A stretch of 64,000 nucleotides of DNA from IMG/VR virus record IMGVR_UViG_3300027792_000010; one strand, 5' to 3'. Below, one piece after another: positions 1,297-7,975 of the stretch. The stretch's first letter is position 1; every line of letters begins with the position of its first letter. The translations under genes were made by a program, and so were the position numbers. The notes beneath the pieces are model-generated. The model saw nothing but the letters and a program-made list of their open reading frames with translations, was not told the origin of the DNA and did no database searches. The DNA is from a virus.

Positions 1297-2118
1297 TCAA
1301 ATACCTATTTTTAACCCATAGTATTTGAGCTTTAAAGAAGGTTCGTATATATTAATCTTATTATACAATTTTATATGCTCAAGAAATCTTTTATGTTCAA
1401 GTTTCCAGGCTTCCAAAGATTTATGGTTGAAGGTTAATTCTTTTTCTAGCTTTTTGATAGTTAACTCATTCCATTTAAAATGATGAATTTCTATACCAAA
1501 AGAATGAGGGGATAGCTCCTCAAAGTAGGGTTCTGTGTTGCAACCTTTAAAATAGACTCCACCTCTATTTATAAATACGTGACGACCTCCCCCAATATCT
1601 CTACTCATCTTAGCGCATACTATCTTTTTATCCCAACCTTTTAATATTTCTTTTGTTATATATCCACCTATTGGGTACTGGACTTCCAAAGGTATATCTT
1701 TGATTATAGGCGTTAATTCACCAGTAATACATATTCTATCTATCAGCCTGCCCTCAAGGTAATCAAATCCAAGGCGTTTTGCGTTTTTAATGGATGACCT
1801 AATATCTTTAGGATAAAATTGAAATTCATCTATATCCGCATATATAGCCCAGTCGCTATCTTTACGGTAATGGCTACTTATAAGTTTTTCCTGAGCTACC
1901 TTTTCGTCCTCAGAAAATTCTCCTGGCCATTCTTGGAGGACACACAGATTTCTATACTTTTTAACTTTTTCTTTTACAGTATTGTAGGTCTCAGAGTCCT
2001 TTGATGCATTCACTACAATAAGTATCTTTTTAGGTCTAAACTTTTCATAGTGCTGTAAAAACATATCTAATAAGGGAGTATCGAAACAACTTATTGTAGT
2101 TATTACATAGATTCTCAT
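1297..2118 (-). CDS. Glycosyltransferase family 2-like protein
   Basis: N-terminal 'LDMFLQHYEK' segment and DxD motif 'WAIYADIDEF', typical of GT-A fold proteins. Confidence 0.7.
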   Translation of the reverse strand: MRIYVITTISCFDTPLLDMFLQHYEKFRPKKILIVVNASKDSETYNTVKEKVKKYRNLCVLQEWPGEFSEDEKVAQEKLISSHYRKDSDWAIYADIDEFQFYPKDIRSSIKNAKRLGFDYLEGRLIDRICITGELTPIIKDIPLEVQYPIGGYITKEILKGWDKKIVCAKMSRDIGGGRHVFINRGGVYFKGCNTEPYFEELSPHSFGIEIHHFKWNELTIKKLEKELTFNHKSLEAWKLEHKRFLEHIKLYNKINIYEPSLKLKYYGLKIGI

Positions 2119-2153
2119 ATTGTTCCTATCTATGTGTAGCCTATAAAGACTTA

Positions 2154-2330
2154 TTATAGTCGAACATTAAAAACCTCTAATTTAGAGATATCTATTCTTA
2201 AACCTAAATATTGCATACGCTGTACTAGCTTCCCCAAGCACATATCTATATCTATATCTACCCATGGGTCGTCAGCTTTCCATAGATAGGTTGAAGCAGT
2301 CTGGGTTAAAGTTAAAGTTAAATCTTCCAT
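2154..2330 (-). CDS. Small hypothetical protein (58 aa), paralog of 5776..6036
   Basis: Hand translation MEDLTLTLTQTASTYLWKADDPW..., directly downstream of the promoter at 2340-2368; N-terminus nearly identical to ORF 5776..6036. Confidence 0.6.
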   Translation of the reverse strand: MEDLTLTLTQTASTYLWKADDPWVDIDIDMCLGKLVQRMQYLGLRIDISKLEVFNVRL

Positions 2331-2339
2331 CATAAAAAT

Positions 2340-2368
2340 AATATACTTTTTGGAAGTATGAGTTTAAA
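2340..2368 (-). promoter_or_regulatory. Recurrent sigma70-like promoter (representative copy): TTKAHA/TTGMHA-like -35, 17 bp, then AAAAAG or AAATAG abutting TATATT
   Basis: TTTAAA-17-TATATT here. Same -10 context (minus strand) at 6046, 15092, 18474, 21589, 27191, 32805, 33413, 35822, 44521, 45492, 51975, each just upstream of a minus-strand gene. Confidence 0.8.
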
Positions 2369-2376
2369 GTGTAAAA

Positions 2377-2452
2377 TGGCTGGGACACAGGGACTTGAAC
2401 CCCGAACACCCAGAGTCAGAGTCTGGTGCTCTACCAATTGAGCTATGTCCCA
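2377..2452 (-). tRNA. tRNA-Gln(CTG)
   Basis: Cloverleaf: acceptor TGGGACA/TGTCCCA, anticodon arm CCAGA-CTCTGAC-TCTGG, G73, encoded CCA. Confidence 0.95.
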
Positions 2453-2537
2453 CTATATGTCTGTTTATTACTCTTAGCTAATCCTTAAAACTATATAATA
2501 ATAAACTTCTTATTGAGAGTTCTATATTAATAAGTTA

Positions 2538-2608
2538 TGCCCCTAATTGGTCTCGAACCAATGACTCCTGTTTTAGAGACAGTTGTTTTACCACTAAACT
2601 ATAAGGGC
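2538..2608 (-). tRNA. Amber suppressor tRNA (anticodon CTA)
   Basis: Acceptor GCCCTTA/TAGGGGC, D stem GTTT/AAAC, anticodon arm ACTGT-CTCTAAA-ACAGG, T arm ATTGG-TTCGAGA-CCAAT, A73. Confidence 0.88.
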
Positions 2609-2614
2609 ACATAA

Positions 2615-2884
2615 TCACTCTATCACATAGATACCAGTTACGTTGGTTATCCAGTTCTTAGGGTCCTGAATAACTTCAATAGTCCACTGGTCTTCCTTCT
2701 GAATATGATCTCTCTGCCACTCGTAAAACATCTTCTGAGCCATTTTCAGGTCATACGAAGTTTTTACAAGATATGTATGCTCTGAACTTTCTGGTGATAC
2801 GAATTGATATAGCTTGCTAACCATACCATCTCCTTTTGTTATACTAAATGTAGATCTTTGAATATAACTCCTAAATCGAAACAT
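2615..2884 (-). CDS. Hypothetical protein
   Basis: ORF track; true start probably the internal MVSKLY. Confidence 0.5.
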   Translation of the reverse strand: MFRFRSYIQRSTFSITKGDGMVSKLYQFVSPESSEHTYLVKTSYDLKMAQKMFYEWQRDHIQKEDQWTIEVIQDPKNWITNVTGIYVIE

Positions 2885-3150
2885 GCTATCGCTGTCTCTT
2901 GACCATCTAAGTCTGGTTCACGGAATACAGAAAAATACTTGCCTACTGTGGTAAGCTTTTCGTTCCAGGCTCTGAGAGCCAGTAGATTACTGACTCCCAG
3001 AAATACAATCGTCTGATTGCCCCAAATACTGAAAAGACCAGAGTGTTCTAAGGCAAACTGAGAAACCGCATGACACCCTTGGACACAGCGATAAGTTTCT
3101 GCCAGGTCCTTACGGACAAGGACATACATTCGCGGTGTTCGCGTACTCAT
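2839..3150 (-). CDS. Peptidyl-tRNA hydrolase 2-like protein
   Basis: 'MYVLVRKDL...VQGCHA...FREPDLDGQETAIA' matches phage PTH2-like proteins; start placed at MSTRTPR to avoid overlap with the upstream ORF. Confidence 0.75.
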   Translation of the reverse strand: MSTRTPRMYVLVRKDLAETYRCVQGCHAVSQFALEHSGLFSIWGNQTIVFLGVSNLLALRAWNEKLTTVGKYFSVFREPDLDGQETAIACFDLGVIFKDLHLV

Positions 3151-3409
3151 TTTGGATCTCCTGAACAAGTTTGAAATTAGGATAGTTACCTTCCCTTGTA
3201 TATCTTTCAATTTTATCATAACTTCTACCTCTCATTAGACAGTAAGCTATATGCTTATGTCTGGTTATCCAACTTGTACGCCCAATTTCATTATCCAGGT
3301 CTTCTATTTTCCAGGTACCTCTATTACCCTGAGGTCTGTGAGACTTAAGTTCTCTAATCGTTACAGATAACGCTTTCAATTCATTCTTTAATTCACTTAA
3401 TGGTTTCAT
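3110..3409 (-). CDS. Hypothetical phage protein
   Basis: ORF with SD (GGAG); 'RHKHIAYCLMRGRSYDKIE' resembles common phage hypotheticals. Confidence 0.6.
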   Translation of the reverse strand: MKPLSELKNELKALSVTIRELKSHRPQGNRGTWKIEDLDNEIGRTSWITRHKHIAYCLMRGRSYDKIERYTREGNYPNFKLVQEIQNEYANTANVCPCP

Positions 3410-3670
3410 TTCAATCTCCTTAAATTTAGTTGTTATTGTCTTCTTATAGAATAATAGAAAGGCAATAACTTTTAAGGGGGCTTGAAAACCTATGGGAAAT
3501 TAAGAACCTACAGCATACCTACTCCTTAGTCTGTTTTTGAAGGAACTAAAATATATTTACACAATTTCCTCTATACATTTTTAAGTATCCAATTATTTTA
3601 ACACCACGATCTAACTAAAGCTATATTTGCACTAATAATAATTATTTCTAAGTCAGAAAATTAAGTTCCT

Positions 3671-4087
3671 TTACTTAGTTATCCATATTACAGTAAAATC
3701 GGTATCTAATTTAAAGGGCTCTTGACTTACAATGTTTAACTTTGTAGCTCTGACAAGCTTGCTTGTAAAATTGAATAAAAATGCGTATAAATTACCAGCA
3801 TCGGATTTAGCTAAAACTTCCATAAATCCTGAATCGGGAACCATTTTTAAAGTACTTTGCACTAAATAATATTTACTCGCTATTTCAGGCGTTTGATGTA
3901 AAAAGTACCAAGAATCAGACGTATCATTGGTTATATAAAAAGTGTATGTCGAACTCTCCATTACAGTACCCACATACTTCGAATCCTTATCAATAACTAC
4001 CCGGTGGGTAGTAGTAATAGGAGAAATATTTCCTCCAGCAAATAAGAAAGAAAAACCTAACGCAATCAACATCAGAAACTTACTCAT
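3671..4087 (-). CDS. Secreted hypothetical protein
   Basis: Signal-peptide-like N-terminus MSKFLMLIALGFSFLFA. Confidence 0.6.
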   Translation of the reverse strand: MSKFLMLIALGFSFLFAGGNISPITTTHRVVIDKDSKYVGTVMESSTYTFYITNDTSDSWYFLHQTPEIASKYYLVQSTLKMVPDSGFMEVLAKSDAGNLYAFLFNFTSKLVRATKLNIVSQEPFKLDTDFTVIWITK

Positions 4088-4162
4088 ACCATTCTCCTTG
4101 ATTAGATTAATATTATACCTATACCCAACAAATCATAAAAAATTACTACTCAATAGCTACCT

Positions 4163-4396
4163 CTAAATATCTATAATATTCTTTTTCCATACATAACCCA
4201 CCCTCGGATTCCAAGGATCATCACTGAATATCCTTCTATCTTTATATAAGGGATCGATACATAGTGTGAAAATCCAGGCGCTGATATATAGTTTATGATT
4301 TCCAAAGATCATTCTTAATCTCAGTTTGAAAAACAAGTCCAGAGAGATATAAAAATATGATTCTCTACTTTTGTTAAAAGTTATTCCAAATACCAT
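4163..4396 (-). CDS. Small hypothetical protein
   Basis: ORF-track start (4471) lies inside tRNA-Pro; start moved to MVFGITF. Confidence 0.45.
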   Translation of the reverse strand: MVFGITFNKSRESYFYISLDLFFKLRLRMIFGNHKLYISAWIFTLCIDPLYKDRRIFSDDPWNPRVGYVWKKNIIDI

Positions 4397-4422
4397 AGTC
4401 AATTTATCCCCAACAAAAAAAT

Positions 4423-4499
4423 TGGTCGGCAATACTGGATTTGAACCAGTGATCCCTTGCTCCCAAAGCAAGTGCGTTACCAGACTACGCTAATTGCCG
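4423..4499 (-). tRNA. tRNA-Pro(TGG)
   Basis: Acceptor CGGCAAT/ATTGCCG, anticodon arm CTTGC-TTTGGGA-GCAAG, A73, CCA. Confidence 0.95.
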
Positions 4500-4509
4500 A
4501 TAGATAAAC

Positions 4510-4644
4510 AGTAAACCGAACCCAGCCCACATTCAACACCATCTTTTCATTTAAAGGTTACAATTTCCTGCCACCCCGCGAGTAACCACAGGTGGTTGAG
4601 CGATTGCTGGCTGGGTCTTGTTTCTTCGTCAGGTCCGGTTTACT
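4510..4644 (-). ncRNA. Putative structured ncRNA between the RNA ligase gene and tRNA-Pro
   Basis: GC-richer intergenic segment with nested stems AGTAAACCG/CGGTTTACT, GACCCAGCC/GGCTGGGTT (G-U favours the minus strand), TCAA(C)CACC/GGTGTTGA, GGTTAC/GTAACC. Confidence 0.55.
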
Positions 4645-4651
4645 TTTTATT

Positions 4652-5638
4652 TTATAAGTTATTATCCAAATAGCTCATCCAAAATATTCTAGCTTTATTG
4701 GATATAAACGATCCCATCTTTTTAGGATCTATACCATTTTTAATAATGGTATCCTGTTCTTCCTTCATTACATCACTATATACCCACCTTATGTATTCTC
4801 CGGTGGTAGATTTATCCAGAGGATTCCCAAGTTCTTTCATTTTGTCGATGCCTTGCTGCATCCTATTTTCAGTTACAGCATATTCAACAAACTCTTTTAC
4901 ATTTTCTACCTCTTCGGTGTCGATAGAGGCAAGTTTCTTAACTTTACTATTCTGATGCTTCTCACCTTTCACCTTAAAGATATATCTTTTGGTATCATCT
5001 ATATATTCCCAAACTATTCCTTCCCCCAAACCACCTATCCCAAAGTATTTACCCACAGGGCATTCTTCTTCTACTTTTATAGTAAGCTCTACTAGTTTAT
5101 TCTGAGCTATTTCTGGCTTATTGAAGTCTATATCCAGTTCATAGTTCTCAAACTGAAGAATATTGAATATCTTTTTATCCTCATTCTTAAGATGCTTGAA
5201 TTGCTCTATAGGCTTATAGACATCATCTATTCTAATTGCAAAAATTACCCACATGACAGGTAGTTTACTTATAGCTACACATTTTTGTATGCCAGAACCA
5301 CACCACTCTCCATAGATAGCACAACTGTCATTAAATTCTATACCTTCAAAAATCTTGTCTATGTCTCTATTCGTCATGGTAAGCATAAAACGGTAATTAT
5401 CAGATTCTATGCTCAACAACCTATCTTTACTTTGATATTCATAATGTCCATCTTTATATTTAACAATGGCTGAGTTTGTGCCGTGAAGTTTTATGGTCCC
5501 ACGGAACTTTAGAATAGGATAATCAGTCTCATGCCTATAGACAGGAGCACCTGTTTTATCCTCACCTTTATAATCATGGTGAGATTTAACTGCTCTGATA
5601 ACTTCTCTGAATTGTCCTATATCGGTAAATTTTTTCAT
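4652..5638 (-). CDS. RNA ligase, Rnl2 family
   Basis: Motif I 'TIKLHGTN', III 'IYGEWCG', IV 'GEGIVW', V 'FKVKGEKH'. Confidence 0.88.
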   Translation of the reverse strand: MKKFTDIGQFREVIRAVKSHHDYKGEDKTGAPVYRHETDYPILKFRGTIKLHGTNSAIVKYKDGHYEYQSKDRLLSIESDNYRFMLTMTNRDIDKIFEGIEFNDSCAIYGEWCGSGIQKCVAISKLPVMWVIFAIRIDDVYKPIEQFKHLKNEDKKIFNILQFENYELDIDFNKPEIAQNKLVELTIKVEEECPVGKYFGIGGLGEGIVWEYIDDTKRYIFKVKGEKHQNSKVKKLASIDTEEVENVKEFVEYAVTENRMQQGIDKMKELGNPLDKSTTGEYIRWVYSDVMKEEQDTIIKNGIDPKKMGSFISNKARIFWMSYLDNNL

Positions 5639-5775
5639 ATCATATACTCACATTCTGTTTCGTCTTTGAATCTGGTTTTTTAACATTATCTTTTACGAGC
5701 CCGTAGTTAGCATTATTAAACTCACCCATCATTTCAGATAAGATTTCATCAGATACCACAAAAAATCTTTACCTG

Positions 5776-6036
5776 TCATAGGTATCCTCCAAAATGTATA
5801 GGTTTTTGTACATTCATTACACTAACTCCAGATGGATATACTAGCAGGTTTCGGAATATTTTATCTTCTTCTTCTTCCTGTATTTGTTGTACGTGCATGG
5901 ATATTATTTGATCGCTAGCTTCCATCATTTTTTGCCCATATAAAAACCAATCACGCCACGGGTCATCAGCTTCCCACAGGTATTCAGCTTCCCACAGGTA
6001 TGTTGATGTGGTCTGAGTTAAAGTTAAATTTTCCAT
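5776..6036 (-). CDS. Hypothetical protein (WEADDP family)
   Basis: ORF downstream of promoter 6046-6074; internal WEAE/WEAD duplication; paralog at 2154..2330. Confidence 0.6.
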   Translation of the reverse strand: MENLTLTQTTSTYLWEAEYLWEADDPWRDWFLYGQKMMEASDQIISMHVQQIQEEEEDKIFRNLLVYPSGVSVMNVQKPIHFGGYL

Positions 6037-6084
6037 CGTAATGATAATATACTTTTTGGAAGTATGAGTTTAAAGTAAAAAGAG

Positions 6085-6156
6085 CTGGAGTGCAGGGATT
6101 TGAACCCCGATACTTAGATCCAAAATCTAAGATCCTAACCGTTGGATGACACCCCA
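6085..6156 (-). tRNA. tRNA-Gln(TTG)
   Basis: Acceptor TGGGGTG/CACTCCA, anticodon arm TTAGA-TTTTGGA-TCTAA, G73. Confidence 0.92.
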
Positions 6157-6207
6157 GTAAAGTTGATGGCGACTGCGCTCATGATTGGTATCGCCACCGC
6201 TGAAGAT

Positions 6208-6285
6208 TGGTCTAGATGGAGGGATTCGAACCCACGACCCTCGCGCCCCAAACGCGATGCTCTAGCCGGACTGAGCTACATCTAG
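6208..6285 (-). tRNA. tRNA-Pro(TGG)
   Basis: Acceptor CTAGATG/CATCTAG, anticodon arm TCGCG-TTTGGGG-CGCGA, A73, CCA. Confidence 0.95.
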
Positions 6286-6296
6286 AGTTATTAAGG

Positions 6297-6380
6297 CTGA
6301 CACGGAGGGACTTGAACCCCCAAGCTCCTTACGGAGCGAACGGTTAACAGCCGTTTTCCTTGCCATTAGGATACGTGTCA
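6297..6380 (-). tRNA. tRNA-Asn(GTT) with a long variable arm
   Basis: Acceptor TGACACG/CGTGTCA (U1-A72), G73, anticodon arm AACGG-CTGTTAA-CCGTT, extra arm GCTCC-GTAA-GGAGC. Confidence 0.9.
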
Positions 6381-6430
6381 GTAAAAACAAATGTTCTGCA
6401 TTCATCTGTTATATTTAAAAGAACAAAAAT

Positions 6431-6470
6431 AAAAAAGCCTCAGCGATCCTTGGTTCGGTTCGCTGAGGCT
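6431..6470 (-). terminator. Attenuator 1 intrinsic terminator (3:4 hairpin)
   Basis: GCCTCAGCGA...TCGCTGAGGC followed by TTTTTTATTTTT; its 5' arm can instead pair with GGTTTCGCTGAAGG (6512-6525) inside the leader ORF. Confidence 0.9.
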
Positions 6471-6494
6471 CTTTTCAGAGATTTTGGCTGTTAC

Positions 6495-6581
6495 CTAATG
6501 CAAAACAACCACCTTCAGCGAAACCTTATTAGGTTGCTGTGGATTAGGGTTCGGGTTATTTTGATTAGTAACAATAAACAT
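6495..6581 (-). CDS. Attenuator leader peptide 1, MFIVTNQNNPNPNPQQPNKVSLKVVVLH (Asn/Gln/Pro sensor)
   Basis: SD AAAGGA, ATG, 13 consecutive N/Q/P codons, TAG stop 25 nt before the terminator; upstream of tRNA-Asn, Pro, Gln. Confidence 0.9.
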   Translation of the reverse strand: MFIVTNQNNPNPNPQQPNKVSLKVVVLH

Positions 6582-6610
6582 AATTTTTAATCCTTTTAAT
6601 GCTTAACTTT

Positions 6611-6639
6611 AATATACCACTTTGGTATAAGAAGATCAA
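6611..6639 (-). promoter_or_regulatory. Promoter of tRNA operon 1
   Basis: TTGATC-17 bp (ends AAAGTGG)-TATATT; same type at 29615-29643 and 36871-36899. Confidence 0.88.
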
Positions 6640-6653
6640 GAAAAATTATAGTT

Positions 6654-7046
6654 TTATTTTAATTCTTGATATTTAACAATTTTCATTTCCTCTTTTGAGA
6701 CCACTAAAGATTTTTCCAGTAGAAGATTTGACTTCTGTATAACTGTTCCTGCTCCAAGCCAAGGAGCTATTAATTTATATTTCGTTCCTTTTGAGTTCTC
6801 AAAAACAGCCATACAAAAAATTGAATCTATACTAAATCTTATTTCGTCTCTATATATAAACTTCATTACACTACATGTATCATTTACTGGTATGCTGCTT
6901 TTTAATCTCCATCCGTTATTATCTAACTGAGTATTATTCTTATATACCATCATTTGAGGGGTACTATATTGTTTTTCAAAACCCTTATTATTACCACAAG
7001 ACGCTATTACAATAATAGTTGATAATATTAATGCTTTGTATTTCAT
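6654..7046 (-). CDS. Putative lipoprotein
   Basis: Signal peptide with lipobox-like 'IASC'. Confidence 0.6.
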   Translation of the reverse strand: MKYKALILSTIIVIASCGNNKGFEKQYSTPQMMVYKNNTQLDNNGWRLKSSIPVNDTCSVMKFIYRDEIRFSIDSIFCMAVFENSKGTKYKLIAPWLGAGTVIQKSNLLLEKSLVVSKEEMKIVKYQELK

Positions 7047-7975
7047 ATGCCCATTTCCTTTACTTCTTTTTTACCATCTTCAGTAAATTTCTCTACATCT
7101 TTATCATATTTTTTTAGTAATTCTTCTAATTCTGAAACATGTATTTTTTCTTCATTAGCTATGTCCTGTAATACTTTTTTAACCTTACTGTCATCAGTTG
7201 AGTCTACAATTATCTCATACAGATGTATTGCATCCAACTCAGCAGCTATAGATTGTCTAATAACTCTTGTTATCTCTCTTGGATCTAGTTTATTTTCTGG
7301 AGTAAGCGTTGGGGCTATAGTCGAGAAATCCATAGCTTTCTTTTCAATACCCTTTTCCATCTTATCTAATCTATCATAGTAATCAGGTAACTCTTTTAGA
7401 TGCGCTTTTGCTATAACTTTATAAAAATTTTCTTTCGTGATTGGCATCTTTATCTCCAACTTTTTAAAGAACTTACAAAAGAGTTCATATAAATCCTTAT
7501 GCTCTTTTTCTACATTTATCCCTTCTTGAATTTGAGAAGATGCTGAAAGATACATATGTGCTACCTTAAGAGCCATACCAGACTTTTTAATTGAGTTTTT
7601 GTCGGCTGTGTCCATTTGTTGTACCACCTTTCTTGCCCAGGTAAACCCAGGGTCACCTCCCCAAATTAACCAAGCTACGTAACCCCTATCTTTCCAGGGC
7701 TCGTCTTTATGTTTAGGGTCTATGCTTTTGTTCTTTTCGTGTCTTGAAAAGAAACTGAACATTCTTTTGATAGTATCTGGGGAAATCTTATCACGGTTCT
7801 TTAAATTTACAGCTCGTTGAACACCGGAACCTATGCCTTCTTTAGCAGCTTGTTGGGTATTTAGCCCCCCTTTACCTCCAGCTTTTTGACGGTATTCTAA
7901 TCCCTTGTTTGCTGCAGAAGCAACTTCTTTAGGAGGGACAAAATCAATATGTTTGTACTTCTCAAGAATAGACAT
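7043..7975 (-). CDS. Multi-domain phage protein: N-terminal phage domain, DUF5661-like middle, C-terminal ferritin-like (rubrerythrin/encapsulin-cargo type) domain
   Basis: 'VPPKEVASAANKGL...VAWLIWGGDPG'; 'EGINVEKEH...IAKAHLKELPDYYDRL'; 'AIAAE-like ELDAIHLYE...IANEEKIH' ExxH di-iron pattern. Confidence 0.65.
   Translation of the reverse strand: MSILEKYKHIDFVPPKEVASAANKGLEYRQKAGGKGGLNTQQAAKEGIGSGVQRAVNLKNRDKISPDTIKRMFSFFSRHEKNKSIDPKHKDEPWKDRGYVAWLIWGGDPGFTWARKVVQQMDTADKNSIKKSGMALKVAHMYLSASSQIQEGINVEKEHKDLYELFCKFFKKLEIKMPITKENFYKVIAKAHLKELPDYYDRLDKMEKGIEKKAMDFSTIAPTLTPENKLDPREITRVIRQSIAAELDAIHLYEIIVDSTDDSKVKKVLQDIANEEKIHVSELEELLKKYDKDVEKFTEDGKKEVKEMGI

Follow-up and report, generated by a model that had tools for sequence, protein, structure and literature searches.

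Ahead of three tRNA genes of an uncultured giant phage lies a short transcription unit, unit A, which we interpret, with a probability of about 0.75, as a ribosome-mediated attenuator that gates tRNA-Asn, tRNA-Pro and tRNA-Gln according to the speed at which Asn, Gln and Pro codons are decoded. The parts of such a device are present, their complementarity exceeds chance, the codons of the leader match the tRNAs downstream, and the arrangement recurs in about ten units of two phages. Phage tRNA genes are usually discussed as fixed supplements to codon usage or as replacements for cleaved host tRNAs; to our knowledge, how their expression is controlled is largely unknown. If the attenuator reading is true, the sensor codons are read by the very tRNAs whose synthesis they control, which would make the unit a direct homeostat of decoding capacity and a new use for one of the oldest regulatory mechanisms.

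Layout of unit A and the codon match of its leader

The window referred to below is the whole stretch of DNA that was analysed, 64,000 nt of IMG/VR record IMGVR_UViG_3300027792_000010. It is part of a 190.9-kb contig from a freshwater-sediment metagenome; the phage, of approximately 190 kb, is uncultured. The elements of unit A are as follows.

6639-6611, minus strand: promoter of sigma-70 type, with -35 TTGATC (6639-6634), a 17-nt spacer and a TG-extended -10 TATATT (6616-6611)
6595-6591, minus strand: Shine-Dalgarno-like AAGGA, 9 nt 5' of the ATG, read from the sequence
6581-6495, minus strand: leader ORF A, 28 codons, with stop codon TAG at 6497-6495
6566-6528, minus strand: regulatory run, leader codons 6-18, 13 unbroken codons (6 Asn, 3 Gln, 4 Pro)
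6539-6531, minus strand: region 1, the final codons of the run and partner of region 2 (folding)
6526-6510, minus strand: region 2, 5' strand of the antiterminator, leader codons 19-24 (duplex energy and folding)
6470-6457, minus strand: region 3, 5' arm of the terminator, also used by the antiterminator (folding and duplex energy)
6449-6425, minus strand: region 4, 3' arm of the terminator (6449-6437) plus U-run (6436-6425) (folding)
6380-6295, minus strand: tRNA-Asn(GTT), 86 nt, with a long variable arm (ARAGORN and Rfam)
6285-6208, minus strand: tRNA-Pro(TGG) (ARAGORN and Rfam)
6156-6084, minus strand: tRNA-Gln(TTG), the end of the proximal block (ARAGORN and Rfam)

Unit A has the order of parts that defines a leader-peptide attenuator, with a ribosome-binding site and a short ORF directly 3' of the promoter and an intrinsic terminator between the leader and the tRNA genes. 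The U-run is separated from tRNA-Asn(GTT) by 45 nt, and no further sigma-70-like promoter was found in the interval between terminator and tRNA. The original prediction had placed 13 consecutive codons (6 Asn, 3 Gln, 4 Pro) in a leader at 6581-6495 and had named tRNA-Asn(GTT), Pro(TGG) and Gln(TTG) as the next genes; the run lies where it was said to lie, and ARAGORN and Rfam agree on all three tRNAs.

The run is cognate to the three tRNAs downstream, as the regulatory codons of an attenuator must be. Codons read by these tRNAs account for 11 of the 27 leader codons under strict wobble rules and for 13 of 27 if U34 is allowed to read all four Pro codons, an extension needed by two of the Pro codons (CCT). 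Against a background of 0.10-0.12, derived from the codon usage of 25 long ORFs in the window, this match has a probability of 2e-5 to 4e-6. Of all 396 ORFs in the window that start with ATG and span 15-45 codons, leader A holds the longest run of Asn/Gln/Pro-type codons, at 13; the next longest is 5. No tandem DNA repeat was found under the codon run of leader A.

The first tRNA of the block is unusual in form. tRNA-Asn(GTT) has a long variable arm of 5 bp and G73, and its CCA is not encoded. In bacteria the class II shape is normally confined to Leu, Ser and Tyr tRNAs, and it remains open whether this tRNA is charged as Asn or as Ser. A second tRNA-Pro(TGG) in the window has no leader upstream; a long imperfect inverted repeat (4645-4500, minus strand), with outer arms approximately 110 nt apart, was noted there.

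Pairings in unit A and the proposed switch

A full set of 1:2, 2:3 and 3:4 pairings had been predicted for unit A, and all three fold as described. Computed energies are -8.8 kcal/mol for the 1:2 pairing (6539-6531 with approximately 6526-6515), -26.4 kcal/mol for the entire 2:3 domain, and -24.0 kcal/mol for the 3:4 terminator, in which a G+C-rich hairpin (6470-6437) is followed by the U-run (6436-6425). The 2:3 pairing is thus competitive with 3:4, a point on which the prediction could have failed. As is required of an antiterminator, the alternative helix takes up the 5' arm of the terminator. The 2:3 duplex by itself (6526-6510 with 6470-6457) has an energy of -17.6 kcal/mol, a value reached only 4 times when the upstream sequence was dinucleotide-shuffled 1000 times, and the 180-nt leader RNA as a whole is far more structured than its shuffles (z = -6.4). 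Duplex energy was used in place of the mean pairing probability of the 5' arm, which failed to discriminate the true sequence from shuffles because any G+C-rich arm finds partners. An extra long helix joins codons 3-10 to codons 24-stop and encloses the 1:2 pairing; it should lock the leader in its terminating form when there is no translation.

The effect of ribosome position was modeled on the nascent transcript, before the 3' arm of the terminator has been made, with 27 nt around the P site kept single-stranded. This footprint is crude. With the A site on codons 2-16, the 5' arm of the terminator is predicted to be paired with region 2 at a probability of 0.87-0.99; with the A site anywhere from codon 18 to the stop, only 0.34-0.48 of it is paired. 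The geometry expected of an attenuator, in which a stall within the run favours the antiterminator and a ribosome past the run favours the terminator, is therefore met, in the model only. The original prediction, that stalling on region 1 frees region 2 and antiterminates, holds in this model with one exception: a stall at the final codon or two of the run would place the ribosome over region 2 and lead to termination, so that only codons 6-16 can antiterminate.

Folding of the full transcript at equilibrium, with ribosome masks, gave a different picture, the terminator winning at every ribosome position in both unit A and a sister unit, unit C (see below). We set this calculation aside as uninformative for a kinetic switch and relied on the nascent-transcript model instead. 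Published energies for the trp attenuator also favour the terminator at equilibrium. Since the terminator is always favoured at equilibrium, the switch must be kinetic, as in trp, and the model depends on kinetics that lie beyond the computations reported here. Attenuation as an interpretation of unit A is supported, its function being inferred; the strongest evidence is the same codon-to-tRNA matching in four sister units of this phage and five units of a distant relative, described below.

The proposed cycle would begin with transcription from 6639-6611 and the loading of a ribosome on leader A. With an ample supply of charged Asn, Gln and Pro tRNAs, the ribosome would cross the 13-codon run and region 2; behind it region 1 would recapture region 2, leaving region 3 free to form the 3:4 hairpin with its U-run, and transcription would end approximately 45 nt before the tRNA genes. 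When any of the three aminoacyl-tRNAs is scarce, the ribosome would stall on codons 6-16 and cover region 1, and the free region 2 would take up region 3 as it emerges. No terminator would then form, and RNA polymerase would read into the three tRNA genes, whose products would relieve the stall in a negative feedback loop. Translation of the leader, an increase of read-through upon stalling, and tRNA shortage as the trigger are all inferred, and coupling of transcription to translation is assumed, the host being unknown. Function remains an inference in the absence of data on expression, on termination or from ribosome profiling.

Sister units in the same phage and in a distant relative

The promoter of unit A is a 29-nt motif, TTGATCTT, 12 nt, TGGTATATT, of which the window contains 3 copies against 0 expected. 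Downstream of each copy come a short ORF, an antiterminator/terminator pair and a block of tRNA genes. By walking along the 190.9-kb contig we identified two further units, D and E, outside the window, so that an identical promoter heads five units (A-E) in this phage. The sister units within the window are:

29643-29450, minus strand: unit B, with promoter 29643-29615 and a Val/Lys-rich leader at 29595-29515
29535-29526 and approximately 29487-29462, minus strand: switch of unit B, the antiterminator strand and the terminator, the latter followed by a U-run (duplex equalled in 7 of 1000 shuffles)
36899-36640, minus strand: unit C, with promoter 36899-36871 and a Gly/Glu/Ile/Arg-rich leader at 36785-36717
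36722-36711 and approximately 36684-36655, minus strand: switch of unit C, the antiterminator strand over the TGA stop codon and the terminator, the latter followed by a U-run (duplex equalled in 0 of 1000 shuffles)

Unit B is followed by Lys(CTT), Lys(TTT), Val(TAC), Val(GAC) and Arg(ACG), and unit C by Glu(TTC), a tRNA(CAT), Gly(GCC) and Gly(TCC). The leader of unit D specifies Phe, Asp, Met, Ile and Ser (AGY codons) and precedes Phe, Asp, two CAT tRNAs, Ile and Ser(GCT); that of unit E is a mixed leader of 37 codons ahead of Cys, four Leu, Trp and His tRNAs. Specificity was assessed in a matrix in which the codons of every leader that are read by the tRNAs of every block were counted. For units A-E no other of the 120 possible assignments scores as high as the true one, which has 58 matched codons against 47 for the next and a mean of 22. 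The boundaries of the blocks in this and the following matrix are our own choice (tRNAs up to the next unit), wobble rules were simplified, and block E is only partly known.

The switches of the five units share a plan. In each, the 5' arm of the terminator finds its best partner at the 3' end of the leader ORF (P from <0.001 to 0.028). Units B-E lack a region 1 and have their antiterminator strand on or adjoining the stop codon, whereas in unit A that strand lies 12 nt before the stop and a 1:2 hairpin is added. With no region 1 and the antiterminator strand on the stop, most sister units should default to read-through when untranslated.

A distant relative was reached through a small protein of the tRNA islands. 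It is a complete IMG/VR phage of 469.6 kb with terminal repeats, which has several island proteins in common with the present phage at 40-65% identity and carries at least 5 units: G1, G2, G3a, G3 and G4. In G1 a Thr/Gly/Val/Ala leader precedes Thr, CAT, two Gly, Val and Thr tRNAs, and in G2 a Ser/Leu/Lys/Phe/Cys/His leader precedes Phe, Ile, Leu, two Lys, Ser, Cys, Ser, His and Ser. The core of the G4 leader consists of eight codons (Glu-Trp-Arg-Glu-Arg-Asp-Arg-Glu), matched codon for codon by its block of Glu(TTC), Arg(ACG), Trp, Asp and Arg(CCG). G3a and G3 are tandem Asn/Pro/Gln leaders, followed by Gln(CTG), three Pro, Gln(TTG) and an amber-suppressor tRNA. Two features of this region, and one of the further contigs described below, are located as follows.

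L197 6620-6850 and 7190-7395, plus strand: units G3a and G3, G3a lying approximately 470 nt upstream of G3
L192 approximately 2862-3135, plus strand: intron-split tRNA-Asn(GTT) of the relative, with a group I intron in the anticodon loop (Rfam, 92.8 bits)
L120 1659-1780 and L183 approximately 1500-1610, plus strand: tRNA-like CAT element between promoter and long mixed leader

An ORF of 91 codons sits between G3a and G3, so that G3a would gate a protein gene as well as a second attenuator. The split tRNA-Asn(GTT) lies inside the G3 block and came to light because the Asn codons of the G3 leaders had no partner; its splice sites, read by us from the sequence, are only suggested. Two ORFs upstream of the suppressor tRNA are common to both phages, making the Asn/Pro/Gln unit and its extended block syntenic. 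Between unit A and its counterpart the amino-acid make-up of the leader is kept, whereas the terminator and antiterminator sequences are wholly different and yet still complementary. In a 4x4 matrix (G1-G4), computed before tRNA-Asn was added and with G3a left out, the true assignment is the best of 24. In the 10 units to which the duplex test was applied, the sequence that pairs best with the 5' arm of the terminator is always located at the stop codon or no more than approximately 15 nt away from it (P <= 0.03 for each), and the helix sequences are completely different.

Further contigs extend the pattern. Two related ones combine a Phe/Asn/Ser/Cys/Thr leader with Phe, Asn, Ser(GCT), Cys and Thr(CGT) tRNAs (P = 1e-6 in one of them), and contigs L120 and L183 carry long mixed leaders which, being preceded by the CAT element, would be transcribed behind a tRNA.

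These results bear on whether unit A regulates the tRNAs at all. It might instead be a stand-alone gene for a peptide or small RNA with a terminator of its own, the tRNAs being made by leakage or from other promoters and the codon match being coincidental or compositional. Low-complexity Asn/Gln/Pro peptides do exist, and there are no expression data for unit A with which to exclude this. Such a gene would nevertheless leave us with a codon match that is jointly improbable across units, antiterminator complementarity near the stop codon in all 10 units tested, tRNAs with no alternative promoter before them, and a distant relative that conserves the Asn/Pro/Gln composition and not the sequence of the helices. 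Pure coincidence is very unlikely in view of the joint statistics and of the antiterminator's conserved position, and we give little credence to the absence of regulation in any form.

The stop codons raise a different possibility, namely that unit A responds mainly to the phage amber-suppressor tRNA(CTA) at 2609-2537, which lies downstream on the same strand, and acts as a timing switch and not as a sensor of supply. A ribosome that read through the TAG of leader A would cross regions 3 and 4 and abolish termination, and the frame beyond the TAG is indeed open through the terminator, to a TGA near 6411-6409. Leaders A and D both end in TAG, the rarest stop codon among long ORFs here (6 of 62). 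However, most leaders end in TGA (the other three of the five in this phage and, of four tallied in the relative, all except G1, which has TAG; G3a, left out of the tally, has TAG too). The window also shows no TAG recoding, in that there is no excess of TAG-interrupted frames, and suppression leaves the codon runs unexplained. As the main function of unit A we regard this as improbable; as an extra layer upon attenuation by decoding speed it remains possible. The TAG stop of leader D was located at 14009-14011 of contig L179.

The signal, the tRNA islands and comparison with known systems

If unit A is an attenuator of the kind proposed, the nature of its signal is a separate question. An attenuator by itself cannot tell a shortage of tRNA from a shortage of amino acid. 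The same hardware might thus report amino-acid starvation of the host, the tRNAs being passengers and early transcription being tuned to nutrients. The sequence contains nothing that separates the two signals, and the classical attenuators of trp, his and ilv respond to the level of charged tRNA, which drops whatever limits it. Yet more tRNA gives no relief from amino-acid starvation, and under starvation the exact match of leaders to isoacceptors would serve no purpose, as for the AGY Ser codons and Ser(GCT) of unit D or the CGC, CGA and CGG codons with Arg(ACG) and Arg(CCG) in G4. As starvation is not remedied by a supply of tRNA, shortage of tRNA is the more sensible trigger, and we consider the nutritional signal unlikely. 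Possible causes of a tRNA shortage are decay or cleavage of host tRNAs during infection and a host tRNA pool ill matched to the codon usage of the phage. It is conceivable, and we put it forward only tentatively, that the units jointly constitute a distributed, codon-resolved sensor, in which every unit watches over a part of the decoding capacity of the host and replaces just those tRNAs lost to host anticodon nucleases or to infection-induced decay. If so, leader-peptide attenuation would be a counter-defence device of giant phages, and the RNA ligase, CCA-adding enzyme and PTH2-like genes of the islands (below) would belong to the same tRNA-maintenance programme.

Whatever the signal, leaders of this type would predict which tRNAs a phage expects to run short and which tRNA genes share one regulon. 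They help to assign odd tRNAs, such as the intron-split tRNA-Asn of the relative, and parts so small and modular could serve as codon-specific reporters of translation speed.

Several other features of the islands were recorded. The amber-suppressor tRNA(CTA) (2609-2537, minus strand) lies directly downstream of a gene for a small protein (3219-2839, minus strand) that a feature search placed near PTH2 peptidyl-tRNA hydrolases (score 0.94) and that has no Pfam match. Relatives of this protein in IMG/VR are followed by a tRNA(CTA) in 22 of 26 loci, mostly within approximately 100 nt, and the pair looks like a conserved protein-plus-suppressor module. Also encoded in the islands, on the minus strand, are an RNA ligase of Rnl2 type (PF09414) at 5638-4652, an HD-domain CCA-adding enzyme at 26608-25268 and a TnpB/Cas12f-like protein at 34582-33467; there is one more TnpB immediately beyond the window. 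The RNA ligase, the CCA-adding enzyme and the PTH2-like protein fit a theme of tRNA maintenance and prove nothing. A tRNA at 35733-35629 (minus strand), missed without the intron option, has a 28-nt insert in its anticodon loop and is read as Leu(TAG) by ARAGORN or as Arg(TCT) with another choice of splice sites; leader C has both CTA and AGA/AGG codons. A second repeated promoter-like motif (TTTAAA, 17 nt, TATATT) occurs on the minus strand at 6074-6046, approximately 2366-2335 and approximately 35845-35815, after tRNA-Gln(TTG), after tRNA-Gln(CTG) and before tRNA-Gly(TCC); about 30 nt are nearly identical between the first two copies, and the motif is joined to other sequence in contigs of other runs.

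Searches for the units elsewhere gave a restricted distribution. Several studies include sediment and soil/wetland runs that contain DNA of the phage, identical over leader A. The only contig recovered from the single RNA run covers 6926-7100 and not leader A, and is no evidence either way on expression. The exact sequence of leader A found no match in IMG/VR, and the promoter motif with a variable gap gave 119 chance matches there, none with a tRNA downstream, which served as a negative control only. Most loci reached with the RNA ligase as an anchor have no tRNA island, and most of the tRNA-rich ones have no such leaders; this anchor yielded only L120, with one long leader and a terminator, and a weak Trp candidate in L149. 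The CCA-adding enzyme used as an anchor found no relatives, and no usable cultured relatives were found. A scan of the phage T5 region of 23 tRNAs revealed no codon-matched leader with a terminator. Since neither T5, nor the 119 motif matches, nor most RNA-ligase loci have such units, the design appears to be restricted to a lineage and is not general.

Known RNA families were searched with Rfam, with the gathering score as threshold for the whole window and E <= 0.1 for 2000-7000. Unit A matched none of the Trp, His, Leu, Thr and Phe leader families, only the tRNAs being matched, and the T-box model had no match in the window. An attenuator-like leader ahead of the tRNA-Phe genes of E. coli was considered as a precedent and rejected: pheV in K-12 has its promoter directly before the tRNA and no leader. 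No account of leader-peptide control of tRNA genes was found in the literature, most subscription journals being outside our coverage; as far as that search reaches, the application of classical leader-peptide attenuation to tRNA supply is new.

Among other phages, the tRNA clusters of T4 and T5 resemble the present islands as arrays interspersed with small ORFs, promoters and homing endonucleases, but the annotated tRNA region of T5, unlike unit A, has promoters directly before tRNAs. T-box riboswitches are alike in that the status of tRNA selects an antiterminator or a terminator 5' of translation-related genes; they bind uncharged tRNA directly through a specifier codon and need neither ribosome nor ORF. 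In E. coli the pheST operon, with its pheM leader, attenuates phenylalanyl-tRNA synthetase by the decoding of cognate codons and is thus likewise a leader-peptide attenuator over a component of the translation apparatus, but it is bacterial, regulates a synthetase gene and senses one amino acid. The closest likeness is to trpL, hisL, pheL, thrL, leuL and ilvL of enterobacteria, which also have, close to the promoter, a short ORF that contains a run of regulatory codons, and hairpins for antitermination and termination that exclude one another, the position of the ribosome deciding between them. Unit A meets every structural criterion of leader-peptide attenuators that we examined and has, like trp, the full 1:2, 2:3 and 3:4 set; most sister units, unlike trp, have no region 1, and their antiterminator strand lies on the stop codon, the two-hairpin form being frequent. 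The phage units differ from the enterobacterial leaders in being carried by phages and in what they control, namely the cognate tRNAs of their own regulatory codons in place of biosynthetic enzymes. The leaders thrL and ilvL are known to sense several amino acids at once; in the phages the whole tRNA set is split into amino-acid groups with one leader for each, and some leaders form a "barcode" of up to approximately ten amino acids.
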